From: Syntrophomonadaceae bacterium
GTDB lineage: Bacteria; Bacillota; Syntrophomonadia; Syntrophomonadales; Syntrophomonadaceae
Direction of reading: 5' to 3'
Length of the DNA: 64,000 nt
Assembly (NCBI GenBank): GCA_049656905.1
Contig: JBASMO010000044.1
Span: 482 to 64,481, forward strand
Shown here in pieces: positions 4,498-53,882 of the stretch (position 1 is its first letter; every line of letters begins with the position of its first letter). Under the pieces are notes generated by a model. It did not search any database. It had not been told where the DNA came from and was given only the letters and a program-made list of their open reading frames with translations. The translations under genes were made by a program, and so were the position numbers.

Positions 4498-4779
4498 GTG
4501 ATTTTTTTGTATGAGAACCTCGTACTGGGTGTAGCTAATGAAGCCATGGTTACTATTTTGCTAGTGGCAGCTCCCATTTTGGGCGGGGCTTTGCTTACCG
4601 GTTTACTTATCAGTATATTGCAGGCTACCACCCAGCTGCAGGAAATGACCCTGGTTTTCGTGCCTAAAATTGTAGTAGTGCTATTAATGGTAATAATCTT
4701 TGGCCCGTGGATGTTGAATGTGATTACTGGGTTTACTTACGATTTGTATGCGTCTTTGCCACTATTTGTAACCTGGTAA
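4498..4779 (+). CDS. fliQ: Flagellar type III export apparatus protein FliQ
   Basis: About 90-aa two-TM protein with the FliQ core LLISILQATTQLQEMTLVFVPKI. GTG start lies immediately after the fliP stop. Confidence 0.9.
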   Translation: MIFLYENLVLGVANEAMVTILLVAAPILGGALLTGLLISILQATTQLQEMTLVFVPKIVVVLLMVIIFGPWMLNVITGFTYDLYASLPLFVTW

Positions 4780-4794
4780 GGTGGTTGATCAGCC

Positions 4795-5553: not shown

Positions 5554-6671
5554 AAAATGACATGAATGAAGAGCAGCTTTGGCTGGTTGACCTGCAGCTT
5601 TTTGCTGAGGATGGAGCAACCGGTGAAAAAACTGAACAAGCTACACCCAGGCGGCGGGAAGAAGCACGCCGCAAAGGCCAGGTATTTAAAAGTACCGACT
5701 TAAACGCAGCGATTATTATGGTAGCGGGTTCAGCAGCGGTGTATTTAACCTATCCTTATATAATTCAGTCTTTGCAGGATTTCACTTCTCTATATTTGCT
5801 GGAGCGCGCTCATGAGGAGTTTACGATTCAGTATATTTACGGCCTGCTTTTAGAAGTATTATTCATTTTAGCTAAGATCGGACTACCGATTATGGCTGCT
5901 TGTTTTGTGGCTGCATTACTGATTACCTATCTACAGGTGGGCTTTGTATTCTCGGGAGAGCCCTTAACTCCTAAACTGGAACGCCTTAACCCGGTGCAGG
6001 GATTTCAAAGGATTTTTTCCAAGCGAGCGCTGGTGGAACTGGTCAAGTCTCTGCTTAAAGTTGCAGTTACTGGATGGATTGTATATACGGTTATCCGTAA
6101 GTATTATTATGTATTTCCACGTTTTGTTGATATGGAACTGATAGCGACTTTACAGGCTTTAGGGCAAATCATTTTTGAAATGGCCATGAAGGTAGGAGTC
6201 GTTTTCGTTATCATAGGGGTTTTGGATTACCTATACCAGTGGTTTGAGCATGAAAAAACCTTAAAAATGAGCAAGTACGACGTCAAACAAGAGTATAAGG
6301 AAACGGAAGGTGACCCGCTCATTAGGTCGCGCCAGCGGCAAATTCAAAGAGAAGTGGCCATGCGGCGTATGATGGCGGAAGTACCCAAAGCCGATGTCAT
6401 AATTACTAATCCTACTCATTTTGCCGTAGCCCTTCGTTATGAAGTGGATATTATGGATGCACCCGTGGTGATAGCTAAAGGGCAGGATTATATGGCGGCG
6501 AAAATAAGAGAGATTGCTGATGAATACGGGATTATGATAGTAGAAAATCCACTGTTAGCCCGTACTCTATATAATTCAGTTGAGATAGGACAAGAGGTGC
6601 CAGAAGAATTGTATCATGCTGTTGCTGAAGTGCTGGCCTTTGTCTATCGGCAGAAGAAAAAGGTTCTTTAG
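5550..6671 (+). CDS. flhB: Flagellar export switch protein FlhB
   Basis: Carries the NPTH autocleavage motif (ITNPTHFAVAL) and the N-terminal EKTEQATPRRREEARRKGQV segment. The start is taken at GTG 5550, overlapping the fliR stop; ATG 5562 is an alternative. The track start at 5487 lies inside fliR. Confidence 0.9.
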   Translation: MKNDMNEEQLWLVDLQLFAEDGATGEKTEQATPRRREEARRKGQVFKSTDLNAAIIMVAGSAAVYLTYPYIIQSLQDFTSLYLLERAHEEFTIQYIYGLLLEVLFILAKIGLPIMAACFVAALLITYLQVGFVFSGEPLTPKLERLNPVQGFQRIFSKRALVELVKSLLKVAVTGWIVYTVIRKYYYVFPRFVDMELIATLQALGQIIFEMAMKVGVVFVIIGVLDYLYQWFEHEKTLKMSKYDVKQEYKETEGDPLIRSRQRQIQREVAMRRMMAEVPKADVIITNPTHFAVALRYEVDIMDAPVVIAKGQDYMAAKIREIADEYGIMIVENPLLARTLYNSVEIGQEVPEELYHAVAEVLAFVYRQKKKVL

Positions 6672-6682
6672 GAGGTAGCCGA

Positions 6683-8746: not shown

Positions 8747-9909
8747 AAATAAAGAAATTTGTAGCCAGGGATTACAAAACTGCTATACACCAGGCGAAGA
8801 AGGAAATGGGACCAGATGCCATAATACTACATTCTCGCCAGATTAAGAAACGAGGGATTATGGGCTGGTTTTCACCACCGCAGATCGAAATAACCGTAGC
8901 CATGGATGATACCCTCCAGGTTCACACAGATCGGAAGAGAAAGAACATAGATGCGGCTTGGTCAGCGCCCGCCGGCAATGCTAATCAACAGGTGCCATTG
9001 CCACGAGACACAGGGAGAGAAGTGGAACTGGTTGAAGAAATAAGGCGCATGAACCACCTTATGGAAGAAATGAAAAGTAAGCTTTATGAAGTTGAAAGCA
9101 TTAAGGGTTTATCACAATCGGTACAACGTTTTCATCAAATGCTGTTGGAAAATCGTGTGAAACCGGAAATAGCTATGCATATAGCTGCCAATATTCAGAA
9201 CAGGTTGCCCCAGGACCACAGAACTGAACTCAAATGGGCTCACGAAGTATGTGTGCATACCTTACGAGAGTTTGTAAAGGATATAAGTCCTATTAATCTG
9301 TACAGAAACCAAACCAGTCGCTTGGTGTTTATGATCGGGCCAACTGGAGTTGGGAAAACCACAACTATTGCCAAATTAGCGGCTAAGATGACCTTTTTAG
9401 AAAACAAAAGAGTGGCCTTGATTACCCTGGATACCTACCGGATTTCAGCCGCTGATCAGTTGCGTACTTTTGCCGATATAATGGGTATTCCCCTTAGTGT
9501 AGTCTTTTCAGACGGTGAGATGAAAGAGGCGTTAGACAAGTACCAGGATCAGGATATTATTTTTGTTGATACAGCGGGGTGTAGTCCCTTTAATAAGGAG
9601 CAGATGGCAGATTTAGAGCGTTTTGTTAAAGTAGCTCAGCCTGATGATATTATTTTGGTCTTGAGCGTTACTACCGACAGCGATGATTTAATAAATACTT
9701 ATGAACAATTCAAGAGTGTAGGTATTGACAAAATCATTTTCACCAAACTTGATGAAACCACTACCTATGGGCAAATCTTAAATGTTGTATATGAGATTAG
9801 AAAACCAATTGCCTATGTTACTACTGGACAAAACGTTCCAGATGACATTGAAATACCAGATTCTACCCGCTTAGCCAGAATGTTTCTGGGAGAGGAGGGT
9901 ATAAGATGA
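8743..9909 (+). CDS. flhF: Flagellar GTPase FlhF (SRP-type)
   Basis: SRP-GTPase motifs GPTGVGKTTT, DTAG and TKLDET. ATGA overlap with flhA. Confidence 0.9.
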   Translation: MKIKKFVARDYKTAIHQAKKEMGPDAIILHSRQIKKRGIMGWFSPPQIEITVAMDDTLQVHTDRKRKNIDAAWSAPAGNANQQVPLPRDTGREVELVEEIRRMNHLMEEMKSKLYEVESIKGLSQSVQRFHQMLLENRVKPEIAMHIAANIQNRLPQDHRTELKWAHEVCVHTLREFVKDISPINLYRNQTSRLVFMIGPTGVGKTTTIAKLAAKMTFLENKRVALITLDTYRISAADQLRTFADIMGIPLSVVFSDGEMKEALDKYQDQDIIFVDTAGCSPFNKEQMADLERFVKVAQPDDIILVLSVTTDSDDLINTYEQFKSVGIDKIIFTKLDETTTYGQILNVVYEIRKPIAYVTTGQNVPDDIEIPDSTRLARMFLGEEGIR

Positions 9910-10814
9910 AGGACCAGGCTGAACGTCTGCGAGAGATGGCAAACCAGATTCGTCAACAAATTGAGCAGGAATTTGTGCGGCAAGTTCATCGGGCCAGGGT
10001 TGTAGCTATAAGTAGTGGCAAAGGAGGAGTCGGCAAAAGTACTTTGGCTCTCAATCTGGCTTTAGTTTTATGTAAACAGGGCAAAAAGGTTTTATTATTG
10101 GATGCAGATATGGGTATGGCTAACCTGGATATAATGCTGGGTGTAGTACCTAAATACAATCTTTTTCATGTTATCCAAGGGCGGAAAAACCTCCATGACG
10201 TTATTATATCTGGGCCGCAAGGCATGTCGATTATTCCAGGAGGATCAGGTATTCTGGAATTAGCCAATCTTCCTGCCAGTGACATGAAGAGACTTTTGGT
10301 AGAGTTAATTAAATTGGACAGCGATTATGATTATATGATTCTGGATACTGGTGCAGGCATATCGAAAAATGTCACCAGCTTCCTTCTGGCAGCCGACGAT
10401 GTTATTATAGTCACTATTCCCGAACCAACCTCTATAACTGATGCCTATGGAGTACTTAAAAGCATGAATCGAGCCTCGTATAATGGTAAGGTATATCTAG
10501 TGGTCAATCGGGTCAGTGACGAATCTGAAGGTATCTGGGTAGCTGAAAAATTAACCATAGTTGCTCAAAAGTATCTGGATATAGAGGTGCTAAGTCTCGG
10601 CTATATCTTAAATGATCCCAGTGTCAGTGAAGGGATAAGGCGACAGCAGCCATTTGTAGAGATATACCCCCGCAGCCGGGTAACCCACAATTTTAAGCGG
10701 ATTGCTGAAAAACTTTTAGAAGCCCACCGGGAGAAAAGGTTGGATGATCTTCAGGAGGCAAAACAACCTGGAATAAGAAACTTTTTTAAAAGGGTCCTAA
10801 GTAGTTCTAAATAA
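9906..10814 (+). CDS. flhG: MinD/ParA-type ATPase FlhG (YlxH)
   Basis: Deviant Walker A SGKGGVGKST. It follows flhF with an ATGA overlap, as in B. subtilis. Confidence 0.85.
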   Translation: MKDQAERLREMANQIRQQIEQEFVRQVHRARVVAISSGKGGVGKSTLALNLALVLCKQGKKVLLLDADMGMANLDIMLGVVPKYNLFHVIQGRKNLHDVIISGPQGMSIIPGGSGILELANLPASDMKRLLVELIKLDSDYDYMILDTGAGISKNVTSFLLAADDVIIVTIPEPTSITDAYGVLKSMNRASYNGKVYLVVNRVSDESEGIWVAEKLTIVAQKYLDIEVLSLGYILNDPSVSEGIRRQQPFVEIYPRSRVTHNFKRIAEKLLEAHREKRLDDLQEAKQPGIRNFFKRVLSSSK

Positions 10815-10836
10815 TGTACCAACGGGGGATAAAAGG

Positions 10837-11484
10837 ATGAACGATTTTGATCTCAAGGTAAATCAGCTAATAGAAATAGAAATGGATCAAAACGGGAAGA
10901 AGGTATTTTTAGCCAGTCGAATTGAAGCAATCGAAGAAAGGTATATGTTGATAGCAACCCCTATCCGGCGAGGCATTCCTTTGTTATTACCGTCTGGAAG
11001 TCCAATCGTGGTTCAATTTAGGAAGGGTAATACTTTTTTTTCTTTTGAAAGTGAAATTATGGGCAGGTATTTGCGACCCATCCCTTTATGGATGATTAAA
11101 AAGCCCGTTTCAATATATAGGGTTCCTCAAAAACGTAGCTCGGTTAGATTACCCATTAATTTACCTGTGCAGTATCAATACCTGGATAGAGATGATGATT
11201 CACTGTATGAAGGCGTAACAATTGACATAAGTGCGACCGGTATTTTGTTCAGCAGCGCCCAGTCATGTGATTGGGGAGAAAAGGTAAAGGTGGATTTGTT
11301 TCTTGGCAAGGATAATATAATTTCCTCAGCAGCTAAGGTGGTCCGTACTGAAGATAAAGGTGGTCTGACTAGGTATCGGATAGCCGTGGAATTTGAAGAT
11401 ATGCCCGAGATAGAACGTGATCGCATTTTTAAGTTTATGTTTGATAAACAACGCGAATGGATACGTAAAGGAATTCTTGAATGA
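10837..11484 (+). CDS. PilZ-domain c-di-GMP receptor, YcgR/MotI-like flagellar brake candidate
   Basis: The C-terminal PilZ motifs are intact: RSSVR (RxxxR) and DISATG (DxSxxG). An N-terminal PilZN-like domain is present. The gene is embedded between flhG and cheB. Confidence 0.8.
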   Translation: MNDFDLKVNQLIEIEMDQNGKKVFLASRIEAIEERYMLIATPIRRGIPLLLPSGSPIVVQFRKGNTFFSFESEIMGRYLRPIPLWMIKKPVSIYRVPQKRSSVRLPINLPVQYQYLDRDDDSLYEGVTIDISATGILFSSAQSCDWGEKVKVDLFLGKDNIISSAAKVVRTEDKGGLTRYRIAVEFEDMPEIERDRIFKFMFDKQREWIRKGILE

Positions 11485-11519
11485 AACGCGAATGGATACG
11501 TAAAGGAATTCTTGAATGA
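11450..11519 (+). repeat. Perfect 35-bp tandem direct duplication
   Basis: AACGCGAATGGATACGTAAAGGAATTCTTGAATGA occurs at 11450-11484 and again, identically, at 11485-11519. Confidence 0.95.
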
Positions 11520-11533
11520 ATGGAGGCTCTCTG

Positions 11534-12598
11534 ATGAAACCAATTCGTGTCTTGGTAGTTGATGACTCAGCTTTTATGCGTAAGGTAATCAGTGATATTA
11601 TCAACAACGACCCTAATATGACAGTTATTGGCACCGCCAGGGATGGAAGGGACGCCTTAAAAAAGATTCAGGAGCTTAACCCGGACGTTGTTACTATGGA
11701 TGTGGAAATGCCTGGTTTAGATGGACTGGCTGCTCTAGAAGAGTTAATGAAGATATCCCCTTTACCAGTATTAATGATTAGCAGCTTGACTAAACGAGGT
11801 ACTGAGCAAACGGTCAAGGCTCTTCAATTAGGAGCGGTTGATTTTATAGCCAAACCTTCCGGACCAATTTCTTTGGATATCGACACCGTAAAAGAAGAAA
11901 TAATTAGTAAAATTAAAATTGCAGCAGGTACAAAGAATAAATTGGCGAATTTTAAGTATAAAACAGTAATTAGCCCTGTTCGCCCTGTCTCTACTTTTAA
12001 GGAACTGGCGCCAGGCACAACCCTTGACAAATTGGTGCTTATTGGTACTTCAACTGGAGGGCCTAAAGCTCTTCATGAAGTAATACCTAGACTACCAGAG
12101 CAAATAAATGCTGGTATTTTGATAGTTCAACATATGCCACCTGGATTTACCAGATCTTTAGCGGAAAGACTAGACTCTTTGTCACAGATAACAGTGAAAG
12201 AAGCAGAGCACGGCGAAGAAATAATTCCCGGTTGTGCATATATAGCTCCTGGTGACTATCATTTGACTGTCAGCAGGCCTCCTTCCGGAGCACGAGAATT
12301 AAAGGTCAACTTAACCAAGGAACAGCCCCGAGGAGGACATCGGCCTGCAGTTGATACTATGTTGGAATCGGTAGCCCAACTATATTGGTCAGATATGATA
12401 TGCGTAATTATGACCGGTATGGGCAATGACGGAAGCCAAGGAGTTCAATTAATTAAAAAGCGGGGCGGCAAAGTAATTGCTGAACATCAATCATCCTGTA
12501 TTGTATATGGTATGCCTAAAGCTGCTATTGCAACAGGTTGCGTTGACAAAATAGTTCATCTCAAAGACATCAGCAGTGAAGTTTTGAGAATGCTGTAG
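11534..12598 (+). CDS. cheB: Chemotaxis methylesterase/response regulator CheB
   Basis: Receiver domain (VLVVDDSAFMR, TMDVEMPGLDG) followed by a CheB esterase domain (GTSTGGP, HMPPGFT, GMGNDG). The start is taken at ATG 11534, 6 nt after GGAGG. The track start at 11516 lies inside the duplicated repeat. Confidence 0.9.
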   Translation: MKPIRVLVVDDSAFMRKVISDIINNDPNMTVIGTARDGRDALKKIQELNPDVVTMDVEMPGLDGLAALEELMKISPLPVLMISSLTKRGTEQTVKALQLGAVDFIAKPSGPISLDIDTVKEEIISKIKIAAGTKNKLANFKYKTVISPVRPVSTFKELAPGTTLDKLVLIGTSTGGPKALHEVIPRLPEQINAGILIVQHMPPGFTRSLAERLDSLSQITVKEAEHGEEIIPGCAYIAPGDYHLTVSRPPSGARELKVNLTKEQPRGGHRPAVDTMLESVAQLYWSDMICVIMTGMGNDGSQGVQLIKKRGGKVIAEHQSSCIVYGMPKAAIATGCVDKIVHLKDISSEVLRML

Positions 12599-18456: not shown

Positions 18457-18777
18457 ATGACCATCCGCAGTATTGATATGCAGGTTTTGGTACAGAAGGT
18501 TGGTGAAGTTGCCAAAATACAGCAAGCAGAGAAAACTAGCCAGCATATCAAACAACAATCCTTTCTAGAGCAAATAGCTCAACAGACTGAGGTTGTCAGT
18601 AAAACCGTTAATGAAGCATCTGCCAGTGAATCGGGTTTGATCAGAGAAAAACAGTCCGAAAAGAAAAAGAAACATACCGGTAAGAAAAAGGCCCGGCAGA
18701 ATGAGCCTGATGATGAGGAGACTGCTAATTGGACTCCTGATCCCAATAAGGGTTCCAATTTGGATGTGCGAGCATAA
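18457..18777 (+). CDS. Hypothetical charged protein (Lys/Glu/Gln-rich)
   Basis: ORF with a good SD (GGGGGTGAGG) 5-6 nt upstream. No family recognised. It is co-oriented and tightly packed at the tail of the fla/che operon. Confidence 0.4.
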   Translation: MTIRSIDMQVLVQKVGEVAKIQQAEKTSQHIKQQSFLEQIAQQTEVVSKTVNEASASESGLIREKQSEKKKKHTGKKKARQNEPDDEETANWTPDPNKGSNLDVRA

Positions 18778-18785
18778 AACAGGAT

Positions 18786-19280
18786 GTGAAAATGCTTATG
18801 ACTGGATTACTTATAATAAGTGCCCTGGTATTGGTGACGACTTTAGTAATCGTCACTCAACACAAGAAGTTTCTGGAAAGTTATCTACAGGAATTGGCAC
18901 TTACCCTTCAGGAGAGCCGGGCAGTGAGAACAAATTTAGAAAATCTTTTGAACCAGGCCGTTCTATTATCTGATCAGATAGCGCAGAAATTAGAATATCA
19001 GGCATTGGCAAATGAACAACCTGATAATCATATAGGTGGTCCCAGTAAGAATGACGCATTAGCAGCTGACGAAGCGGTTCATACTAATAGGGATATCTCC
19101 AACCAGCAGGCTGCCCAACAGTCATATAATATCGAATCAGGGTTACCCCTACTGAATGAACAGGTGGTAGCGCTTTATAAAGACGGATATTCAATCAAAG
19201 ATATTGCCAGTATGTTAAATCGAGGTCAGGGAGAAATAAGCCTGATACTGAATATTACTAACCAACGCCGGGTTATTTAA
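18786..19280 (+). CDS. Hypothetical N-terminally membrane-anchored protein with C-terminal HTH-like segment
   Basis: One N-terminal TM helix (LLIISALVLVTTLVIV), a coiled-coil-like middle and a C-terminal YSIKDIASMLNRGQGEISLIL segment that resembles a sigma region-4/LuxR-type HTH. No family confidently recognised. Confidence 0.5.
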   Translation: MKMLMTGLLIISALVLVTTLVIVTQHKKFLESYLQELALTLQESRAVRTNLENLLNQAVLLSDQIAQKLEYQALANEQPDNHIGGPSKNDALAADEAVHTNRDISNQQAAQQSYNIESGLPLLNEQVVALYKDGYSIKDIASMLNRGQGEISLILNITNQRRVI

Positions 19281-24043: not shown

Positions 24044-25162
24044 ATGGATCCTGAACTGCAAAAAAGCGTCAAACTACTGGTCAAAATGGCAATTCTCACT
24101 CTATCTCTAATAATCATATACCTTCTGTTTGCCTATGTTTTTCCCATCGTGGGGGAAATTCTAATATATATTCCTATACTTTTTTTACCCTTTATTATTG
24201 CCATTGCCATTGCGGTAGTGATCGAACCTATAGTGGTGTTTTTTGAGACCAGGCTGAGAATGAGACGGAGCCTGGCGGTAGTTTTTAGTCTGGTTTTTTC
24301 AGTAGGCGGATTTATATATTTAGTTTCGCTGGCTATATCTCAAATCGTTAAAGAGCTATCAGGATTATATCCACTTATGCTGTCTTATTCGGATCAGGTG
24401 ATTACTAAATTCGTGACTGCCATTGGCGATTTTCGTTTATTCTACCTCCAATTAGATCTAGCCCCTGAATTAGAAAAAGCCCTGGAAGACAACCTGCAAA
24501 AAGCATCGGAAATACTGCAAACGGTAGCTAATAACAGTCTTAAGTATCTAATAGATGTCTTTTCAGCTCTGCCCGGAGCATTTATTCTTATATTAATAGC
24601 TATGGTGGCTACCTTCTTCATAATAAAGGATCGTGCTCTGTTGCGCACCTTTTTCCTGCAGATCATTCCCGGCAGTGCCAGGGCTCAATCTCGCGACGTT
24701 TTAGCCGAATTGTTCCGAGCTTTAATAGGGTTTTTGAAGGCTTACAGTATTTTAATCAGTATTACGGCTATCATAACTATTGTTGGGCTCAAAATATTGG
24801 GAATAAGCTACATTTTTACTATCGGCATTTTAGTGGGTATACTGGATATTCTACCCATACTAGGACCAGGCACTCTATTTATTCCTTGGATTATTTGGGA
24901 AATAATCAGTGGAGATACTGGGTTTGCGGTCAGCTTGTTGGTATTATATGTAATTATCTCCGTTGTACGGCAGTTTTTGGAGCCCAAAATCATCGGGGAC
25001 AATATAGGACTGCATCCCTTGGCTACTTTAATCTCTTTATATGTAGGTCTGCAATTGGGCGGTATAGTAGGAATGATTGCCGGGCCTGTTTTGCTGGTTA
25101 TTTTTATCGCCTGTTATAGAGTGGGTGTTTTCAATAGGTTTAACTGGAGGAAGAGTGATTAA
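24044..25162 (+). CDS. AI-2E/PerM family membrane protein, YtvI-like
   Basis: 372-aa polytopic protein with AI-2E family architecture and the C-terminal motif region (LEPKIIGDNIGLHPLATL). The YtvI-like sporulation assignment is tentative. Confidence 0.65.
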   Translation: MDPELQKSVKLLVKMAILTLSLIIIYLLFAYVFPIVGEILIYIPILFLPFIIAIAIAVVIEPIVVFFETRLRMRRSLAVVFSLVFSVGGFIYLVSLAISQIVKELSGLYPLMLSYSDQVITKFVTAIGDFRLFYLQLDLAPELEKALEDNLQKASEILQTVANNSLKYLIDVFSALPGAFILILIAMVATFFIIKDRALLRTFFLQIIPGSARAQSRDVLAELFRALIGFLKAYSILISITAIITIVGLKILGISYIFTIGILVGILDILPILGPGTLFIPWIIWEIISGDTGFAVSLLVLYVIISVVRQFLEPKIIGDNIGLHPLATLISLYVGLQLGGIVGMIAGPVLLVIFIACYRVGVFNRFNWRKSD

Positions 25163-30146: not shown

Positions 30147-30809
30147 ATGTCAGTTTATGAAATAATCTTCAAGTTAGCCTTGGCGGGCATATTGGGCGGG
30201 GTAATTGGCTTGGAGAGGGAAAGCTTAAATCGCCCGGCTGGACTGCGAACCTATACTTTGGTATGTGTAGGTTCGGCATTGGCTATGGTAGTTTCTTTGG
30301 ATATGTATTTTCAGTATTATCAGACCGTTAATGCTGATCCAGGTCGAATAGCTGCTCAGGTTATCAGTGGGATAGGTTTTTTAGGCGCCGGCACCATCAT
30401 GCGAGAGGGAGCCACAGTAAGAGGGCTGACCACCGCTGCAGGTCTTTGGGTGGTGGCTTGTATTGGACTGGCCGTTGGTGCCGGACTATACATACCAGCT
30501 ATAGCTACAACTATTCTAATACTGTTTATCCTGATTTACTTTATACGTTTTGAAGAGAGATTTACAGGCTTAAGGGAGTTTAAAAGACTGGTAATGCTGG
30601 TAGAAGACCGTCCCGGCCAGGTAGGCATTATCGGATCGATTCTGGGTGATCTGGGTGTGCTTATTAAAAACATTCAGCTAACCCGGGTAGAGGGAGAAGA
30701 TTTAGAAATTGAACTTCTGATTCAGCTGCCGTCTAACCTGACTATTAATGATGTAGTAAATGAGTTATCGGAAGTAAAAGGCTTGCGAAACATTGATCGA
30801 CTGAATTAG
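30147..30809 (+). CDS. MgtC/SapB family membrane protein with C-terminal ACT-like domain
   Basis: MgtC signature (GLERE...AGLRTY, GIGFLGAGTI) followed by a soluble C-terminal domain. Confidence 0.75.
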   Translation: MSVYEIIFKLALAGILGGVIGLERESLNRPAGLRTYTLVCVGSALAMVVSLDMYFQYYQTVNADPGRIAAQVISGIGFLGAGTIMREGATVRGLTTAAGLWVVACIGLAVGAGLYIPAIATTILILFILIYFIRFEERFTGLREFKRLVMLVEDRPGQVGIIGSILGDLGVLIKNIQLTRVEGEDLEIELLIQLPSNLTINDVVNELSEVKGLRNIDRLN

Positions 30810-30845: not shown

Positions 30846-33800
30846 ATGCAAGGAAAAAGCTTGGTGCAGCTTCACTCCTGCTTTGCTGATAATTGTTGCT
30901 GGGAAAATGCTGCCATAGAGCGAGTAGAGGTTTTTTCTAAACAGAGACGATGGAAACTGGTAATTGCTGTCCAACAGCCTGTACCTATTGAGGAGATAAA
31001 TGCGGCGGAGCAAAGCCTCTTAAAAGAGTATCCTTTTTTAAGTCAAATCGAGCTGATACCCTCTTTATCCAACAGCAGTGAGCATTTAATAAAGCTTTTC
31101 GAAAAGCATCAGACCGAAATAGCGCAGCAACTGTTCGGTAGTACTACCAAACTGCCCATAGCACCTTTTACGGCTGACGAAATGCGCTTAGACTTTCATC
31201 CATCTGATGAAGCCCTATATCAAAAATACCTAGATAGCGGAATTTGCAGCCGGTTGTCTGCTTGGTATTGGCAGCAGTATCGGCTGCCGGTCTTGGTGAG
31301 GGTTATGCCCAGTCATAAACGCATGTCAATACCGCAGGTTACTTTAATCGAACCCTCTCAGGGCAATTGGTTGCCTGAATCCCAAACCAGTTCCAAGCGC
31401 TCATCCTTCATTAATCGTTCTCGCCAAGACAAAAAATTATTGGAGGCCAAGACCATATCAATAGGTGAACTACAGGAAGGGCTAAAATCAGCTATTGTGG
31501 AAGGAGAGATTTGGGATAAGGAAACCACCGTCTTGCGTGACGGTCGCCTGGTGGTTACCTACAACCTGACCGATTATAATGATTCTATTTTAGTAAAAGC
31601 TTTTTACGATCGTCCTCAGGATGACGCCTTTCAGGTGGGAGACTTTATAAGGGTAAGAGGCAGTGTTCGTTATGATAGTTTTGCCCGGGAAATTGTCCTA
31701 TTCTTGGACAGCAGCATAAAGAGGGATAAAAAGCTCAGAACTGATCAAGCTGTGGTTAAACGTGTGGAATTGCATGCTCACACTAAGATGAGTGCTATGG
31801 ACGGATTAACCGAGGTATCGGCACTGATAGAACGGGCTGCTACCTGGGGCCATCCAGCTATTGCTATAACTGATCATGGCTGCATTCAAGCATTCCCTGA
31901 TGCTTACCAACAGGCGCAAAAACATGGCATTAGGATTCTCTACGGAGTGGAAGCGTATCTAATAGAATCAGATCGCCGTCAGCGTCCCTATCACATGGTA
32001 CTAATTGCTTGTGATCGGCAAGGGTTAAAAAACCTTTACCATCTTATAAGCATATCCTATTTGGATTATTACCACCGTCACCCCAAAATACCACGGGAGG
32101 AACTTGTTAAATACCGGAAGGGCATACTGGTAGGATCAGCCTGTCAAGCTGGTGAGCTGTACAGTGGTATTTTGCAGGGCTTACCTAAGGATGAAATTGT
32201 AGCAATTGCTAAATTCTATGATTATTTGGAGATACAGCCATTGGCCAATAATGAGTTTTTAGTACGAGATGGAAGAGTTAACAGCATAGAAGACCTTCAG
32301 CAGATTAACGCTCAGATCGTAGCCTTGGGAGAAGAACTTAATAAACCAGTAGTAGCCACCTGTGATGTGCATTATCTAGATCCTGAGCACGATATTTTTC
32401 GTCGCATTATACAGGCAGGTCAGGGTTATGAAGACAGTGACGGGGGGGCGGGGCTGTACCTGCGTACTACCGACGAGATGCTGGACGAATTCGCTTACTT
32501 AGGAAAAGAAATGGCTCAAAAAGTAGTCATAGAAAATCCTCTTAGCATCGCCCAGCGGGTTGAAGATATTAAACCGGTACCGGATGGGTTTTTCCCGCCG
32601 AAAATTGACGAGGCTGAAGATGAAGTGTATCAGCTCAGCTGGAGCCGGGCCCGGGAGATATATGGTGATCCGCTACCGGAGTTGGTGGAAGCCAGAATAA
32701 AAAAAGAACTAGATTCCATTATTCGTCATGGTTTTAGCGTCTTATACTCTATTGCTCACAAATTGGTGAAAAAATCTAACGAGGATGGCTATATGGTTGG
32801 TTCTAGAGGCTCAGTGGGTTCATCACTGGTAGCTTTTTTGACCGGTATTACCGAAGTCAACCCCCTGCCACCCCATTGGAGATGTCCTGATTGCTGTCAT
32901 ACTCGTTTTATCACAGATGGCTCGATTGGCTGTGGAGCCGATTTAGAACCATCAGTGTGTGAGAAATGTGGTGCAGTGATGGAGCAAGATGGATTTGATA
33001 TTCCCTTTGAAACTTTCCTGGGATTTGAAGGAGATAAAGTACCTGATATCGATTTGAACTTTTCCGGTGAATACCAGAGTCGAGCTCATTCCTACGTTGA
33101 AGAGCTGTTTGGCAAAGAAAATGTTTTCCGCGCCGGCACCATATCTACTATTGCTGAAAAAACCGCCTATGGATTTGTGAAAAAGTATGAAGAAGAAAAC
33201 CAATTGCATCTTCGCAATGCAGAAATAAACAGGTTGGTTAAGGGCATTGCCGGGGTAAGGAGGACCACTGGTCAGCATCCTGGGGGACTGATTGTCGTAC
33301 CCCAGGATCGAGAAATACTGGAATTTACACCGCTGCAGTACCCAGCCGAAAACAAGGATTCAGGTGTGGTTACAACCCATTTTGAATATCATGCTATAGG
33401 CGATCAGCTAGTCAAGCTTGATATCCTGGGACATGATGATCCTACCGTAATAAAAGAACTGGAAGACATGACCGGCATAAAAGCCTCTTCAATTAAGCTG
33501 AATGATCGGGACACTATGCTGCTTTTTTCCAGTGTTGAGCCTTTGGGAGTGACTGAGGAAGAGATCGGTTCCACCGTTGGAACCTATGGTATACCAGAAT
33601 TCGGAACCCGTTTTGTCCGTCAGATGCTGGAAGCAACGCGCCCCACTACCTTTTCAGAATTGGTACGCATAAGCGGTTTATCTCATGGAACCGATGTCTG
33701 GCTCAACAATGCTCAGACATTAATTGAGAACAATGTGGCTAATCTAAATGAAGTTATTTGCACCCGTGACGATATAATGAGCTATCTGATTTATAAAGGA

Positions 33801-34469
33801 GTAGAAAAGAAAACCGCCTTCAAGATAATGGAAAATGTGCGCAAGGGCAGAGGATTAAAAGGGGAAGAAGAGGATATACTGAAGAAATATAATATTCCTG
33901 ATTGGTATATAGATTCCTGTCAAAAAATAAAGTATATGTTTCCAAAAGCCCACGCTGTAGCCTATGTTACTATGGCATTTCGTATTGCTTATTTTAAGAT
34001 TAATTACCCGCTGGCTTTTTACGCTAGTTTTTTCAGCGTACGCGCCGAAGATTTTGAAGCCCAAACCATACTGGCTGGTTATGAACAGGTCTATAAGCGA
34101 ATTAGAGAAATTGAACGGCAGGGAATGGGAGCCTCCCAAAAAGACAAGAAGCTTTTACCCATACTGGAAGTGGCCTTGGAAATGTTAGCCCGAGGGTTTA
34201 GATTTTATCCAGTAGATATTTACCATTCCCTAGCTCATAAATTTACCATTCTCAATGATGGGCTGCTGCTGCCATTTTCCGCTTTACCTAATGTAGGGGT
34301 GGCAGCTGCTCAAGGAATAGTGGCCGCCAGAGAAGAAGCTGAATTTATTTCTGTAGAAGACTTTCAGCATCGTACTCATACCAATAAAACAGCCATGGAT
34401 GTATTGCGCGATTATGGATGTTTTAATGACTTGCCTGAAAAAACACAAATAAGCTTGTTCGGTAGCTAG
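30846..34469 (+). CDS. polC: DNA polymerase III alpha subunit, PolC type, without the inserted 3'-5' exonuclease domain
   Basis: PolC hallmarks are present. These are the OB domain, the PHP motif VELHAHTKMSAMDG...AITDHG and the PolC zinc module HWRCPDCCH...CEKCG...DIPFETFLGF. The palm (GSRGSVGSSLVAF), fingers and a C-terminal tail are also present. The product is only 1207 aa, and the sequence runs LYGVEAYLIESDRRQRPYHMVLIA with nothing where the DEDDh exonuclease normally sits. Confidence 0.9.
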   Translation: MQGKSLVQLHSCFADNCCWENAAIERVEVFSKQRRWKLVIAVQQPVPIEEINAAEQSLLKEYPFLSQIELIPSLSNSSEHLIKLFEKHQTEIAQQLFGSTTKLPIAPFTADEMRLDFHPSDEALYQKYLDSGICSRLSAWYWQQYRLPVLVRVMPSHKRMSIPQVTLIEPSQGNWLPESQTSSKRSSFINRSRQDKKLLEAKTISIGELQEGLKSAIVEGEIWDKETTVLRDGRLVVTYNLTDYNDSILVKAFYDRPQDDAFQVGDFIRVRGSVRYDSFAREIVLFLDSSIKRDKKLRTDQAVVKRVELHAHTKMSAMDGLTEVSALIERAATWGHPAIAITDHGCIQAFPDAYQQAQKHGIRILYGVEAYLIESDRRQRPYHMVLIACDRQGLKNLYHLISISYLDYYHRHPKIPREELVKYRKGILVGSACQAGELYSGILQGLPKDEIVAIAKFYDYLEIQPLANNEFLVRDGRVNSIEDLQQINAQIVALGEELNKPVVATCDVHYLDPEHDIFRRIIQAGQGYEDSDGGAGLYLRTTDEMLDEFAYLGKEMAQKVVIENPLSIAQRVEDIKPVPDGFFPPKIDEAEDEVYQLSWSRAREIYGDPLPELVEARIKKELDSIIRHGFSVLYSIAHKLVKKSNEDGYMVGSRGSVGSSLVAFLTGITEVNPLPPHWRCPDCCHTRFITDGSIGCGADLEPSVCEKCGAVMEQDGFDIPFETFLGFEGDKVPDIDLNFSGEYQSRAHSYVEELFGKENVFRAGTISTIAEKTAYGFVKKYEEENQLHLRNAEINRLVKGIAGVRRTTGQHPGGLIVVPQDREILEFTPLQYPAENKDSGVVTTHFEYHAIGDQLVKLDILGHDDPTVIKELEDMTGIKASSIKLNDRDTMLLFSSVEPLGVTEEEIGSTVGTYGIPEFGTRFVRQMLEATRPTTFSELVRISGLSHGTDVWLNNAQTLIENNVANLNEVICTRDDIMSYLIYKGVEKKTAFKIMENVRKGRGLKGEEEDILKKYNIPDWYIDSCQKIKYMFPKAHAVAYVTMAFRIAYFKINYPLAFYASFFSVRAEDFEAQTILAGYEQVYKRIREIERQGMGASQKDKKLLPILEVALEMLARGFRFYPVDIYHSLAHKFTILNDGLLLPFSALPNVGVAAAQGIVAAREEAEFISVEDFQHRTHTNKTAMDVLRDYGCFNDLPEKTQISLFGS

Positions 34470-34595: not shown

Positions 34596-35069
34596 GTGGA
34601 TACTGGGGGTGGTACATTGGCGAAATCAAAAATAGATCTCATTTCCAGCATGATTGAAGAACCTATTAGGCAATTATCGGCTGAGCTGGTTGAAGTGGAG
34701 TACCGTCGTGAGGCTGGCGACCAATACTTAAGAATATTTATCGACCGGGAAGCGGGAGTAGATCTCGATTTATGCAGTCGGGTCAGTCGTGCTATTAAAG
34801 GATTAGTTGATGAACAGGGTATTGAGTACGATCACCTGGAGGTATCATCACCTGGATTGAATCGCAAACTTATTAGTAATAAGGATTTCCAACGTTTTAA
34901 TGGGCAACGGGTTAAGGTTAAACTATCTAAAAGATTTGATGGTCCCCGACAAGTGGTCGGGGTTCTTATTGGTCACAGTGAGCAAGTTCTCAAAGTGGAG
35001 AATGAACAAGGAACTGTTGAAATTCCCCGTAGTGAAATTACCGTGGTGCGGCTGCATCCCGATTTATAA
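34596..35069 (+). CDS. rimP: Ribosome maturation factor RimP
   Basis: RimP-like N-terminal domain (ELVEVEYRREAGDQYLRIFID) and a C-terminal Sm-like domain. It lies upstream of nusA. The exact start is uncertain (GTG 34596 or TTG 34617). Confidence 0.85.
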   Translation: MDTGGGTLAKSKIDLISSMIEEPIRQLSAELVEVEYRREAGDQYLRIFIDREAGVDLDLCSRVSRAIKGLVDEQGIEYDHLEVSSPGLNRKLISNKDFQRFNGQRVKVKLSKRFDGPRQVVGVLIGHSEQVLKVENEQGTVEIPRSEITVVRLHPDL

Positions 35070-35081
35070 GGAGGTTGAACA

Positions 35082-36152
35082 ATGTCGAACGAATTGATTC
35101 AGGCATTGATCGATATAGAGCAGGAGCGGGGTATACCCAAGGCTGCCCTGATAGATGCGATTAAAGTAGCTTTGAACACCGCCTACAAAAAGAATTTTGG
35201 AACAGGCCAAAATGTAAGTGTTGAATTCAATGAAATAACCGGTGAAGTTAGTGTTTACTCCCAGAAGAAGGTAGTGGACGAAGTTGAGGATCCTCGGTTG
35301 GAGATATCTATGGAGGATGCCCGTGAGTTATACCCGGATTGTAAAGAAGAAGATCTGGTGTATGTTGAGGTTACTCCCACTAACTTTGGCCGCATTGCCG
35401 CTCAAACCGCTAAGCAGGTGGTTATCCAAAAGCTGCGGGAGGCGGAAAGAAGTCTCATATATGAAGAGTATCTAGAACGAGAAGGTGAGATCCTAACCGG
35501 TACAATTCAGCGTATAGAAAACCGGACTATTTTTATAAGCTTGGGCCGTACCGAAGCCATTATGCTCCCACAGGATCAGATTAGTACAGAGAGATACACT
35601 GTAGGACAACGAATTAAGGCATATATTTTTGAAGTTAAAAACACTTCTAAGGGCCCGAATATATTTGTATCCAGGTCTCATCCCAACTTTCTTAAGCGAT
35701 TGTTTGAAATGGAAGTGCCAGAGATTTATGATGGTGTGGTAGAAATAAAATCCATAGCCCGGGAAGCTGGGACACGATCCAAAATATCCGTCTATTCACA
35801 AGATGATAAAATAGATCCAGTAGGTGCCTGCGTAGGCCCCAGGGGATTAAGGGTTCAAAATATAGTATCAGAACTGAACGGGGAAAAAATCGATATCATC
35901 AAATACGATCGAGACCCCGAGAGATTCATTGCCAATTCCCTTAGCCCCTCTAAAGTAATGTATGTAGATATTAATGAGGAGGAAAAAATTGCTCGGGTAG
36001 TTGTCCCCGATTATCAACTGTCCTTAGCTATAGGAAAAGAAGGGCAGAATGCCCGCTTGGCTGCCAAGCTAACTGGCTGGAAAGTTGATATTAAGAGTGA
36101 GAGTCAAGTGGCTGTCAACGAAGGGGCTGATTATTACGATGAAGAAACCTAG
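35082..36152 (+). CDS. nusA: Transcription termination/antitermination factor NusA
   Basis: N-terminal domain, S1 domain and two KH domains (GACVGPRGLRVQ, AIGKEGQNARLA). 356 aa, short Firmicute type. Confidence 0.95.
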   Translation: MSNELIQALIDIEQERGIPKAALIDAIKVALNTAYKKNFGTGQNVSVEFNEITGEVSVYSQKKVVDEVEDPRLEISMEDARELYPDCKEEDLVYVEVTPTNFGRIAAQTAKQVVIQKLREAERSLIYEEYLEREGEILTGTIQRIENRTIFISLGRTEAIMLPQDQISTERYTVGQRIKAYIFEVKNTSKGPNIFVSRSHPNFLKRLFEMEVPEIYDGVVEIKSIAREAGTRSKISVYSQDDKIDPVGACVGPRGLRVQNIVSELNGEKIDIIKYDRDPERFIANSLSPSKVMYVDINEEEKIARVVVPDYQLSLAIGKEGQNARLAAKLTGWKVDIKSESQVAVNEGADYYDEET

Positions 36153-39372: not shown

Positions 39373-39741
39373 ATGAGTCGACGCAGACAAGAACGTATGG
39401 CCGTTGAACTTAAGAAAGTTTTATCCCGTATTTTACAGGAAGAAATCAAAGATCCTCGTTTGGATTTTTCAGCGGTTTCGGTCAGTCAAGTGGAACTAAG
39501 CAATGACTTAAGTCATGCTCGTGTTTTTATAAGTATTATGGGGGATGATGAAAAACAGCAGGAAACCATGAAAGCATTAGAAAAAGCCCGTGGTTTTATT
39601 CGCAGCAGAATTGCTGAGGAAATTCAAGTACGTCATGTACCCGAGATAGACTTTCGCCTGGACCGGTCCATAGAACATGGAATTCGTATATCTTCTCTTT
39701 TAGATAAAATAATGGAGGAAGGAACGAAGAGTGAAGAATGA
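39373..39741 (+). CDS. rbfA: Ribosome-binding factor A
   Basis: 122 aa with a KH-like RbfA core (LKDPRL, VSVSQVELSNDLSHARVF). Confidence 0.9.
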   Translation: MSRRRQERMAVELKKVLSRILQEEIKDPRLDFSAVSVSQVELSNDLSHARVFISIMGDDEKQQETMKALEKARGFIRSRIAEEIQVRHVPEIDFRLDRSIEHGIRISSLLDKIMEEGTKSEE

Positions 39742-40703
39742 ATACCCTGTCAGACATAGCATCAGTTATTAAAAAGACTCCGGCTTGGGTTTTGGTAGGG
39801 CATGTGATCCCTGACGGTGATTGTATTGGTTCACTGTTAGGGCTTTATTGGGGGCTTCGTTCCTTTGGAAAACGAGTGGTCATGGGGTTGGAAGATCCGG
39901 TTCCCCCCATTTATCATTACTTGCCGGGCAGTGATAAGCTAACCCCTTTATCTTCCGTCAGCGACGTGCCGTCAGCTACAATTTTTTTGGACTGTTCTGA
40001 TGAGGAAAGGGTTGGGGAGGAAACACTTGGCCAGCTTAGCAACCGGTCTATTACTATTAATATTGATCATCACGCTACTAATCCCGCATACGGAGATTAT
40101 AATTATATTGACAGTCAGGCGGCGGCTACAGCGGAATTAGTTTATTACCTGCTAAAAGAATTGAATGTAGTGATTACTCCGAAAATAGCTGAATGTTTGT
40201 TTGCAGGCTTAGTAATGGACTCAGGACGTTTTATGTACAGCAGTACTCGTCCAGAAACCCTAGAGATAGCTGCCGAGCTTTTAAGGAGCGGGGTTGATAT
40301 CGAAAAAACGCGTATCCAATTATTTGAGTCCAAACCCCTTGAGGAGGTTCTGCTCTTATCTAAAGCCCTGCAAAATCTGAACTGGAACGAATCAGGGCGA
40401 ATAGCCTGGATGACTTTGTCCTACCAGGATGTGGCTCAGATCGGGGCCTTAAATTTGCACCCGGAAGGCATAATTAATTACACCCGGTCTATAGCCGGTG
40501 TAGAAGTAGGATTACTTATTCGCGAGATTAGCCCGGGAGTCTGCAAAATAGGTTTTCGTTCCAAAGGCAGGGTTGATGTAGCTAGTATAGCAGCTCTTCT
40601 AGGAGGAGGAGGACACCGGCAGGCTGCTGGAGCGAGGCAGGAAGGCAGCCTGGAACAGGTGACTCAAAAAGTTGTGCAAATGGTCGAGGAAGTGGTTGGC
40701 TAA
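39738..40703 (+). CDS. nrnA: DHH/DHHA1 phosphoesterase, NrnA-like oligoribonuclease/pAp phosphatase
   Basis: DHH motifs (HVIPDGDCIGS, IDHH) and the DHHA1 motif GGGGHRQAAG. Confidence 0.8.
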   Translation: MNTLSDIASVIKKTPAWVLVGHVIPDGDCIGSLLGLYWGLRSFGKRVVMGLEDPVPPIYHYLPGSDKLTPLSSVSDVPSATIFLDCSDEERVGEETLGQLSNRSITINIDHHATNPAYGDYNYIDSQAAATAELVYYLLKELNVVITPKIAECLFAGLVMDSGRFMYSSTRPETLEIAAELLRSGVDIEKTRIQLFESKPLEEVLLLSKALQNLNWNESGRIAWMTLSYQDVAQIGALNLHPEGIINYTRSIAGVEVGLLIREISPGVCKIGFRSKGRVDVASIAALLGGGGHRQAAGARQEGSLEQVTQKVVQMVEEVVG

Positions 40704-50507: not shown

Positions 50508-52383
<1,876 letters not shown>

Positions 52384-52387
<4 letters not shown>

Positions 52388-52412: not shown

Positions 52413-52435
52413 TAAATAAGAAACTCAAAAGTATC

Positions 52436-52556
52436 TTAGAGCGCTGAGTCTGCAATAGGCAGAGCGGAGGACCCGATTTTTGGGGTTAATCAGGTATGTA
52501 GCCTGAGGGGCTACCCAGCAGCCCCCACCCGTCAGCTAACTTCGTAAGCGTCGTTT
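52436..52556 (+). promoter_or_regulatory. ydaO-yuaA type (c-di-AMP) riboswitch
   Basis: It matches the remembered B. subtilis ydaO aptamer blocks in the same order. CAGAGCGGAGGACCC corresponds to CAGAGCGGGGGACCC. GGGGUUAAUC corresponds to GGGGUGAAUC. CCACCCGUCAGCUAACUUCGUAAGCGU corresponds to GAACCCGUCAGCUAACCUCGUAAGCGU. Confidence 0.85.
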
Positions 52557-52631
52557 GGGGGGTACTGTAACAATATATAGCTTACAGGTTAGTTGCCCTC
52601 CGCAAAATTTAAGAAGAAGGAGGGTTTTTGC

Positions 52632-53882
52632 ATGTCTCAGGAAGAAGTTGTAAACCGCAATCTATCATTGCAAAGAGCTGAAGAACTACGGGAAAGTATT
52701 AGCGATTATCTCAGCGTTGAACCTTTCATTGAAACCGGGTTTAGAGTGCAGGATAGAATCCTTGAAAATAGGCAAAAGATACTAGAATACTTCGATGCTA
52801 CCCAAGAGAACTGGGATGATTGGGTTTGGCAGATGAAGCATCGCATTACCGACGTAGAGCCATTACAGTTTTTGCTGAATCTGCCTGAAAAGGAAGTTGA
52901 GGAACTAAAGCAGATTAGCAAGCGATTCCGCTGGGGTATTTCACCTTATTATCTTAGTCTGATTGATTTCGAAAACTATCACGATTCTCCGATTTATAAA
53001 CAAGCCGTGCCTAGCATTTTAGAAGTATGGGATAACCATGGGTCTGCTGATCCCATGTGTGAAACCCAAACAAGTCCTGCCAGTCGGATCACCCGGCGTT
53101 ATCCGGATCGTTTAATTATTAATGTTACCAATCAATGTGCCATGTACTGCCGGCACTGCCAAAGACGACGTAATTTTGGAGAAGAAGATCACCACTGTAC
53201 TCGTCAGCAAATGGAGGAAGCACTAACCTATGTGCGTAACAACCCCGAGATAAGAGATGTGTTGATCACCGGGGGCGACGCACTCATGCTGAGCAATCGA
53301 ACCCTGGATTGGCTCCTGGGTGAATTAGATCAGATTCCTCATGTGGAGATTAAACGGTTGGGGTCCCGCACTCCCGTTACGCTGCCCCAGCGCATTACCC
53401 CGGAGCTCTGTGCTGTTTTGGAAAAGCATCCTCCTATATATCTAAATACCCAGTTTAACACACCCTTGGAAGTTACTCTGGAGGCTAAACAGGCTTGCGA
53501 TCGTTTAATAAAGGCTGGAGTTGTACTGGGGAACCAAGCGGTTTTACTAAGGGATATCAATGATGATGTTCACATTATGAAAAAACTTAACCAAGAACTG
53601 TTGAAAATACGAGTAAGACCATACTATATATTTCATGCTAAACAGGTTAAGGGAACTTCCCATTTTATTACCCCCATTGAAACGGGCATGGGTATTATGG
53701 AAAAACTAAGAGGCTTTACCTCTGGTTTAGCAGTACCAACCTATATTATCAATGCCCCAGAAGGACGAGGTAAAACGCCCATTTTGCCAGAGTATTTACT
53801 ATCCTTGAGTGAAGATGAAATAACTATCCGGACATGGGAAAATAGAGTATATAGATATAAGAACCGGATAAATCAAAGATAA
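52632..53882 (+). CDS. KamA-family radical SAM aminomutase, with a glutamate 2,3-aminomutase-like active-site signature
   Basis: CAMYCRHC (CxxxCxxC) cluster and PLP-Lys region. It aligns end to end with the remembered Clostridium subterminale KamA. The two lysine-binding Asp positions, however, read Lys (YYIFHAKQ versus YYIYQCDL) and Asn (YIINAPEG versus FVVDAPGG). The start is taken at ATG 52632 after GGAGGG. Confidence 0.85.
   Translation: MSQEEVVNRNLSLQRAEELRESISDYLSVEPFIETGFRVQDRILENRQKILEYFDATQENWDDWVWQMKHRITDVEPLQFLLNLPEKEVEELKQISKRFRWGISPYYLSLIDFENYHDSPIYKQAVPSILEVWDNHGSADPMCETQTSPASRITRRYPDRLIINVTNQCAMYCRHCQRRRNFGEEDHHCTRQQMEEALTYVRNNPEIRDVLITGGDALMLSNRTLDWLLGELDQIPHVEIKRLGSRTPVTLPQRITPELCAVLEKHPPIYLNTQFNTPLEVTLEAKQACDRLIKAGVVLGNQAVLLRDINDDVHIMKKLNQELLKIRVRPYYIFHAKQVKGTSHFITPIETGMGIMEKLRGFTSGLAVPTYIINAPEGRGKTPILPEYLLSLSEDEITIRTWENRVYRYKNRINQR

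Follow-up and report, generated by a model that had tools for sequence, protein, structure and literature searches.

The polC gene and the PHP junction

The stretch of DNA analysed here, called the window throughout, comprises 64,000 nucleotides (nt) of the Syntrophomonadaceae bacterium assembly GCA_049656905.1 (contig JBASMO010000044.1, positions 482 to 64,481 of the forward strand) and carries polC, the gene for a DNA polymerase III alpha subunit, in a form that lacks its proofreading domain. The hallmark of a typical PolC is a DEDDh (DnaQ-like) exonuclease domain that interrupts its PHP domain, an arrangement found in 86% of PolCs. This hallmark is missing from the product of the open reading frame (ORF) at 30846-34469 (+), a protein of 1207 amino acids (aa). 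Its membership in the family is unaffected, since proteins without the exonuclease are themselves classed as PolC in the survey by Timinskas et al. (PMC3919608).

The gene lies in a conserved neighborhood. Upstream are ispG, a putative proS and mgtC; downstream follow rimP, nusA, ylxR, an L7Ae-family gene, infB, rbfA, a DHH-family gene, truB, ribF, rpsO and pnp. This is also the locus that polC occupies in Bacillus subtilis, and the shared arrangement marks the window gene as the polC orthologue rather than an additional copy.

Profile comparisons place the protein firmly among the PolCs. Two NCBIfam PolC equivalog models are matched, NF001688 with 1526 bits (cut-off 873) and TIGR01405 with 1392 bits (cut-off 1043), whereas each DnaE model yields at most 263 bits against cut-offs of 434 to 1806. 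The Pfam domains run in the order PolC N-terminal domain, OB, PHP, DNA_pol3_alpha (residues 595-862), finger (865-1008) and HHH_6; the remaining boundaries are given in Table 1. As expected of a PolC, the N-terminal region and the OB fold both precede the PHP domain, each through a weak match. The sequence VELHAHTKMSAMDG, the motif DIPFETFLGF and a Cys-rich zinc module accompany the OB domain. The preliminary description of the window had recognized a 1207-aa PolC-type product with an OB domain, a split PHP domain and a zinc module, and the ORF, the NCBIfam and Pfam matches and an alignment to a crystallised chain described below all bear it out.

The functional residues of the polymerase are retained. 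Catalytic aspartates D734 and D736 (PDIDLNF) and D864 (GHDDPT) are invariant in 120 of 120 homologues, which are the best matches among 5.8 billion proteins (58-100% identity, 1143-1224 aa). A clamp motif of the type Qx[STDN]LF falls among the last nine residues in 110 of them; the published consensus reads QL[S/D]LF or QxxLF, and PolC carries it at the C-terminus (PMC12309361). The canonical PolCs (B. subtilis, Staphylococcus aureus, 9qpc) belong to the same family and gene neighborhood, are 45-55% identical to the window protein outside the insert, and share with it the polymerase active site, the zinc module and the C-terminal QxSLF clamp motif. They differ in having a DEDDh proofreader of about 202-212 residues within a PHP domain that is often degraded, for example by an Asp-to-Asn change. 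The window protein is thus an orthologous, apparently functional PolC without the DEDDh domain.

The position of the missing domain can be read directly from the sequence. Only the 13 residues AYLIESDRRQRPY separate two metal ligands of the PHP domain, E369 (nt 31950-31952) and H383 (nt 31992-31994), in the context YGVE369-AYLIESDRRQRPY-H383MVLIA. Between the same two ligand columns, exonuclease-containing PolCs carry about 200-220 residues in an alignment of 150 PolC representatives, taken from 1.84 billion proteins with residues 201-1207 as the query. The match to NF001688 is accordingly broken in two, with residues 377-1205 aligned to profile positions 610-1444 and about 190 profile positions skipped. 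Against the full-length PolC 9qpc_A, residues 212-374 of the query correspond to chain residues 262-430 and residues 375-1205 to chain residues 633-1471, so that some 202 chain residues (431-632) have no counterpart in the window protein. The preliminary description had stated that the PHP halves are joined directly with roughly 200 residues gone; it quoted the junction exactly, and the comparison is one of 13 against about 212 residues.

Several searches for the exonuclease itself returned nothing. The RNase_T/DnaQ family is absent from the window PolC at E<=1 (Pfam), and a regular-expression search of the protein for Exo I/II/III-type motifs gave no meaningful match. A custom exonuclease hidden Markov model (HMM) of 213 positions was built from 108 PolC inserts (consensus FDIETTG, HNASFD, HRADDD) and run with filters off over every ORF of at least 40 aa in all six frames of the window; its top match reached only E=0.91 and 3.9 bits. 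As a positive control, the same model recovered 111 PolCs from the 185-sequence set used for the tree below. Among almost all other credible ORFs of the window, Pfam found neither an RNase_T family member nor a second C-family polymerase. The two sets of negatives indicate that the DEDDh domain is absent, and that it is neither frameshifted nor separately encoded within the 64 kb. A hidden or frameshifted remnant and an adjacent split gene were considered as candidates and are excluded by the custom HMM and by Pfam analysis of the neighboring genes. An earlier reading by eye, that the protein has no exonuclease motif anywhere, agrees with all three approaches.

A crystallised homologue supports the structural plausibility of such a junction. 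The best match in the PDB is the Geobacillus kaustophilus PolC (3F2B/3F2C/3F2D, 1041 residues), which aligns without a break to residues 212-1206 of the query (1218 bits, roughly 55% identity). In 3F2B a short linker, 13 residues longer than that of the window PolC, likewise connects the two PHP halves at this point. The chain was reportedly described by Evans et al. in 2008 and is said to be an engineered, exonuclease-deleted construct of an enzyme that naturally contains the exonuclease. In Fig. 1 of Timinskas et al. the exonuclease and N-terminal domains are marked as missing from the 3F2B structure (PMC3919608). Since the query aligns across the junction to this crystallised chain, a PolC without the exonuclease can fold.

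Table 1. Features of the exonuclease-less polC and its immediate neighbors, in window coordinates.
Feature	Position (nt)	Strand	Evidence
polC, exonuclease-less DNA polymerase III alpha subunit, 1207 aa	30846..34469	+	NF001688, TIGR01405, unbroken 3F2B alignment
PolC-specific N-terminal region, residues 1-200	30846..31445	+	PF14480 DNA_pol3_a_NI, residues 20-61, E=1.6e-4, exactly at cut-off
OB fold, residues 218-280	31497..31685	+	PF01336 E=1.2e-4, below gathering score; aligns to 3F2B OB region
PHP N-terminal half, residues 306-369; ligands H310, H312, D319, H344, E369	31761..31952	+	PF02811 (308-457) E=2.4e-35
Junction loop AYLIESDRRQRPY, residues 370-382; site of the canonical ~212-residue DEDDh insert	31953..31991	+	Sequence, homologue alignment
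PHP C-terminal half, residues 383 to about 560; ligands H383, C433, D507, H509	31992..32525	+	Ligand mapping
Polymerase core (palm, thumb, fingers), residues 595-1008	32628..33869	+	PF07733 E=2e-59, PF17657 E=2.7e-24
Cys-rich zinc module CPDCCH...CEKCG, residues 679-718	32880..32999	+	Sequence, weak Zn_Ribbon match, aligns to 3F2B module
Tandem helix-hairpin-helix DNA-binding domain, residues 1118-1197	34197..34436	+	PF14579 HHH_6 E=1.4e-12
C-terminal sliding-clamp-binding motif QISLF, residues 1201-1205	34446..34460	+	Sequence
Putative proS (prolyl-tRNA synthetase), 575 aa	28397..30124	+	Translation and position only, no family-library scan
MgtC-family membrane protein gene, not an exonuclease, between proS and polC	30147..30809	+	PF02308 E=6.2e-42
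rimP and nusA, downstream synteny markers	34596..36152	+	ORFs; Pfam labels from the same genes on contig L001

Authenticity, distribution and probable repeated loss

The junction is a trait of the whole lineage, and an artefact can be dismissed. The Joint Genome Institute (JGI) metagenome contig Ga0116180_1000909 (26 kb; contig L001 in Table 1) codes for an identical protein of 1207 aa; it ends 81 nt upstream of polC and therefore stems from an assembly separate from that of the window. The distance between the two ligands is 13 residues in 117 of the 120 homologues and 12 in the other three. The named sources of these homologues are nearly all Syntrophomonadaceae, Syntrophomonas (including S. 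wolfei) and Thermosyntropha, with a few carrying generic labels only; among those sharing the junction are proteins that their sources assign to Syntrophomonas wolfei and to Thermosyntropha lipolytica DSM 11003. The nearest GTDB species representatives are a Syntrophomonadaceae metagenome-assembled genome (MAG; 79% identity) and Syntrophomonas sp. DTU018 (78%).

The preliminary description had raised the concern of an assembly deletion. In its broadest form, this explanation holds that the gene is an artefact or pseudogene, produced by misassembly or by a recent inactivating deletion, and that a second, full-length polC elsewhere is the real replicase. The concern about assembly is refuted by the separately assembled identical protein and by the recurrence of the junction in the homologues and in most of the GTDB loci described next. 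An in-frame junction of 12-13 residues shared down to 58% identity, an ORF that is intact with every functional motif, and the 72 of 80 species loci whose ORFs are too short for a domain of about 212 residues likewise make the broader explanation extremely improbable.

A genome scan extended the comparison to 80 species-level loci. At 72 of these the stop-to-stop ORF measures at most 1317 aa, too short to accommodate the exonuclease; the other eight hold the domain, in ORFs that span 1266-1451 aa and in seven cases reach at least 1401 aa. Fifty named loci entered the tree, and for these the linker was measured directly. Short ORFs occur in Syntrophomonadaceae, in Sporomusa (four complete genomes), Anaerospora, Pelosinus, Propionispora, Massilibacillus, Anaeroarcus and Anaerovibrio, in Veillonellaceae and Selenomonadales MAGs, in Desulfosporosinus, Desulfitobacterium and Peptococcaceae MAGs, and in a Symbiobacterium MAG. 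A further exonuclease-less representative, P0121, is named Thermoclostridium. The exonuclease domain is kept in Thermoanaerobacter, Caldanaerobacter and a few Clostridia MAGs.

The scattered occurrence of the trait was placed on a neighbor-joining tree of 185 full-length PolCs (867 core columns, junction left out). The 68 exonuclease-less PolCs fall into 23 separate clades composed of such proteins only. Fitch parsimony puts the number of state changes at 20, the midpoint root being exonuclease-containing, and 100 bootstrap replicates give 16 to 24. The Syntrophomonadaceae clade and a Desulfitobacteriaceae/Peptococcaceae clade are each recovered with 100% bootstrap support. A single origin of the exonuclease-less state was also evaluated and rejected, as the state was monophyletic in 0 of 100 bootstrap trees. 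The leftover linkers differ among clades: the Negativicutes clade has mostly 12 residues, Syntrophomonadaceae have 13, the Desulfitobacteriaceae/Peptococcaceae clade has mostly 19 and a Thermoclostridium-type group 22-23. These clade-specific lengths look like the scars of separate deletions and, together with the scattered clades, suggest repeated loss. Neighbor joining is crude on deep branches, horizontal transfer is unmodelled and relatives of the query are over-represented in the sample, so the exact number of losses is soft; a single origin is not tenable.

Three shorter PolC-like proteins were left out of the tree. P0225 (854 aa), P0234 (895 aa) and P0258 (904 aa) start at the PHP domain, have no N-terminal region, OB fold or exonuclease insert, and bear degraded PHP signatures (HHDHMHCNH, SHDHEHGDR and HHDSERCNR, respectively). 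Truncated gene calls may account for them, or they may represent a distinct, minimal polymerase of PolC-like type, for instance one carried on mobile elements.

The architecture itself is already known. Exonuclease-less PolCs were described in 2013 by Timinskas, Balvociute, Timinskas and Venclovas (Nucleic Acids Research, NAR, 2014; PMC3919608), who counted 6% of PolCs, and 16% of those in systems that combine PolC with DnaE1, without the Exo insertion (their Table 2). Apart from one exception, an extra copy in Thermotogae, such proteins were limited to Clostridia and Negativicutes, where PolC is paired with DnaE1 (PMC3919608). The published variant has the same N-terminal region, OB fold, uninterrupted PHP domain, Pol3 core and (HhH)2, a tandem helix-hairpin-helix, as the window PolC, and the same setting, class Clostridia with PolC and DnaE1; its nine PHP ligands are conserved, and no architectural difference separates the two (PMC3919608). 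The 2026 survey likewise places Syntrophomonadaceae under Firmicutes, Clostridia in its genome table (PMC12926913). The window protein combines PolC architecture and phylogeny with joined PHP halves, and its nearest named relatives are Syntrophomonadaceae, S. wolfei and Thermosyntropha. Given the published architecture, taxonomic range and redundancy argument, it adds one more member to a recognized group, and the novelty implied by the preliminary description is not upheld, the more so as the genome scan found the variant in many genera.

What the present analysis adds, besides the intactness of the PHP ligands, polymerase aspartates and clamp motif in this protein, is the frequency of loss and its association with the integrity of the PHP site. 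The available text and supplements of PMC3919608 do not name Syntrophomonas and hold no analysis of either subject, and a literature search combining Syntrophomonas with dnaE or polC retrieved nothing specific.

The PHP metal site and proofreading

The metal site that remains in the window PolC is complete. Its ligands were mapped by alignment to Mycobacterium tuberculosis DnaE1 (7pu7/5lew), in which H14, H16, D23, H48, E73, H107, C158, D226 and H228 (7pu7 numbering) correspond in order to the nine residues listed in Table 1. The latter spell the full signature HHDHEHCDH, in agreement with the pattern HHDHEH[C/H]DH by which active PHP exonucleases are recognized (PMC12926913), and all nine are invariant across the 120 homologues. 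Such residues hold the trinuclear zinc center of the active exonuclease, and M. tuberculosis D23 or D226 mutants are inactive (Banos-Mateos et al., PMC5636811). D226 aligns with D507 of the window PolC; the same position is Asn in both solved PolCs, 3F2B and 9qpc. The G. kaustophilus enzyme, with one PHP ligand mutated, is reported to be without PHP exonuclease activity (PMC5636811).

All nine metal-binding positions of the PHP domain are strongly conserved in PolC, and the PHP site of clostridial DnaE1 is perfect (PMC3919608). Most Clostridia are credited with three 'active' proofreaders, namely PHP in PolC, PHP in DnaE1 and DnaQ in PolC (PMC12926913).

The nearest functional parallel is the DnaE1 of M. 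tuberculosis and Thermus, which has the same nine-residue trinuclear site as the window PolC (PMC5636811) and only a short or medium loop where PolC normally carries its DEDDh insert. This loop, which adjoins the PHP site, measures 29 residues in M. tuberculosis, 18 in Thermus aquaticus and 9 in Escherichia coli (PMC5636811). As in DnaE1, the polymerase chain would have no proofreader other than its PHP domain, and by this analogy the window PolC most probably works in the manner of M. tuberculosis and Thermus DnaE1. The two differ in other respects: DnaE1 belongs to a different C-family branch, has a C-terminal OB fold and is without the N-terminal region and zinc module of PolC, and PHP exonuclease activity has been demonstrated for DnaE1 and not for any PolC.

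Loss of the exonuclease and integrity of the PHP site go together. The full PHP signature is present in 67 of 68 exonuclease-less full-length PolCs, compared with 73 of 117 that contain the exonuclease (Fisher p=1e-9, uncorrected for phylogeny). The sole exception among the former, P0218 (1178 aa), is the downstream copy of a tandem polC pair and stands beside an exonuclease-containing PolC.

The tandem pair (3702-7904 and 8001-11537 of locus L082, ENA ERZ27319752 k141_497749, GC 22%) consists of two genes whose products are 61% identical. In the upstream copy (1400 aa) the DEDDh motifs are intact (DIETTG, HNAKFD, HRAIDD) and the PHP site is degraded (HRCLENADQ). P0218 likewise has a degraded PHP site (HRSLENSDQ); its third catalytic Asp is replaced by Glu, and it lacks a C-terminal QxxLF. 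Its cluster counts nine members, eight of them of 1178 aa, from several contigs, and TnpB-like and resolvase genes lie near the pair. By its sequence, P0218 looks like a degenerating or specialised paralogue.

Loss of the exonuclease is seen only where the PHP site is intact, and a decayed PHP site only in the company of a DEDDh domain, a pattern that fits two interchangeable proofreaders. It may tentatively be proposed that these lineages discarded the DEDDh domain repeatedly and independently (16-24 changes), among the full-length PolCs examined always from an intact PHP background and with PHP decay confined to proteins that have a DEDDh domain in the same chain or in an adjacent paralogue, and that exonuclease-less PolCs are natural PHP-proofreading replicases. 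If so, they would possess an activity never shown for any PolC. Intact PHP sites are also the rule, as the ancestral state, in PolCs of the clostridial type that have retained the exonuclease; part of the 67/68 association is therefore inherited, and it is no proof of compensation.

For the window PolC, the most likely mechanism is proofreading by its own PHP domain within a replisome of PolC and DnaE1, a proposal that is moderately favored here and in which both the PHP activity and the presence of DnaE1 are presumed. In an ancestor of the lineage, the DEDDh domain would have been deleted almost exactly from the PHP loop to leave the 13-residue loop; the remainder of the protein (N-terminal region, OB fold, PHP, core, zinc module, helix-hairpin-helix and clamp motif) is still intact and under purifying selection. 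The trinuclear-metal 3'-5' exonuclease of the PHP domain would then act on PolC's own errors, in the role of the ancestral C-family proofreader that Mycobacterium and Thermus DnaE1 use. If the genome follows the PolC+DnaE1 rule, the DEDDh domain would be a redundant third proofreader and could be lost; a DnaE1 with an intact PHP site, as in Clostridia and Negativicutes, would make it so if present here.

The preliminary description had named three ways to compensate for the missing domain: a trans-acting DnaQ-like exonuclease, PHP proofreading or a second PolC. Its structural reading was right, and PHP proofreading is the best supported of its options, given nine intact ligands here and in 120 homologues. 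Missing from the list was the partner polymerase DnaE1, whose own PHP site is intact (PMC3919608).

Several points weigh against PHP proofreading in this enzyme. No report of exonuclease activity was found for any PolC PHP domain, and Barros et al. reportedly argued in 2013 that metal binding by the PHP domain is purely structural in E. coli Pol III. The only PolC PHP domain to have been commented on, that of G. kaustophilus, is inactive, though it bears the Asp-to-Asn change that is absent here (PMC5636811). A second, exonuclease-containing PolC may be present elsewhere in the genome, and a stand-alone DnaQ homologue may exist as well, given a bacterial average of more than three per proteome (PMC12926913). 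The DnaE1 of this genome would follow from a rule in the literature; every bacterium has a DnaE-type subunit (PMC12926913), and within the 64-kb window there is no dnaE and, besides polC, no ORF longer than 861 aa.

The abundance of stand-alone DnaQ homologues speaks for proofreading in trans, by a separate DnaQ-like (DEDDh) exonuclease docking on PolC or on the clamp in the way epsilon serves E. coli DnaE, with the PHP domain kept for structure only. Precedents exist: in mycobacteria a non-canonical DnaQ serves beside PHP as a second proofreader (PMC11348249), and the B. subtilis PolC exonuclease can serve DnaE3 in trans. The window offers no such partner, as neither Pfam (nearly all credible plus-strand ORFs) nor the custom HMM (six frames) found an RNase_T/DnaQ-like ORF, and no gene adjoining polC in the window or on contig L001 encodes a DnaQ-like exonuclease. 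Moreover, nine perfect ligands in 120 homologues down to 58% identity exceed the conservation usual for a structural role, and exonuclease-containing PolCs often lose these ligands (44 of 117). Proofreading in trans is thus an unlikely account of this protein.

A related view would relieve PolC of the need for high fidelity: DnaE1, with its active PHP site, would copy most of the chromosome, and the exonuclease-less PolC would be auxiliary. Timinskas et al. raised this possibility, noting that some Clostridia have DnaE1 alone and that no PolC+DnaE1 system had been characterised experimentally, and their discussion places all exonuclease-lacking PolCs in clostridial genomes (PMC3919608). The strong conservation of the catalytic aspartates, clamp motif and PHP ligands among the 120 homologues, and the retention of the canonical polC locus, do not sit well with an auxiliary role; nor does the window protein exhibit the relaxation seen in the accessory copy P0218, with its degraded PHP site, its Glu for the third Asp and its missing clamp motif. 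An auxiliary PolC is rather improbable on this evidence, and it would be compatible with PHP proofreading in any case, the two not being exclusive.

The built-in DnaQ-type proofreader, a textbook hallmark of PolC, can be dispensed with in a considerable share of the anaerobic Firmicutes, including syntrophs, Sporomusa-type acetogens, Desulfitobacterium, Desulfosporosinus and the Selenomonadales of rumen and gut. Exonuclease-less PolCs would be convenient natural enzymes for probing the proofreading ability of a PolC PHP domain. The presence of the exonuclease domain should not be a requirement in annotation pipelines or in domain-based classifiers of PolC.

Other features of the window

All of the roughly 63 credible genes of the window lie on the plus strand, a strong bias typical of PolC-containing Firmicutes; there are no tRNA genes in the 64 kb. 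The window opens with a flagellar and chemotaxis operon (fliL to fliA, 34 to about 19300), continues through rpsB-tsf-pyrH-frr-uppS-cdsA-dxr-rseP-ispG-proS-polC and the nusA/infB/pnp operon, and ends with guaB, a P-type ATPase and a class A penicillin-binding protein. At the end of the flagellar region, a 106-aa ORF (18457-18777, +) has no Pfam match at E<=1e-5 and is followed by a DUF6115 protein (18786-19280).

Two genes interrupt the otherwise conserved housekeeping order: the MgtC-family gene between proS and polC (Table 1) and an AI-2E-family transporter (24044-25162) between cdsA and dxr. Some 5 kb downstream of polC, the infB-rbfA-truB operon includes a DHH/DHHA1 phosphoesterase gene (NrnA-like, 39738-40703, +), which is also present on contig L001; it is not of the DEDDh type, and nothing ties it to replication proofreading.

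A riboswitch for cyclic di-AMP (c-di-AMP; RF00379) at 52432-52565 (+) is matched over its full length with 85.8 bits. It is directly preceded by a second MgtC-family gene (51956-52387) and lies 27 nt upstream of an ORF (52593-53882) for a radical-SAM protein with a lysine-2,3-aminomutase C-terminal domain. In the segment 52432-53882, c-di-AMP may thus control the synthesis of a compatible solute of the beta-lysine type.

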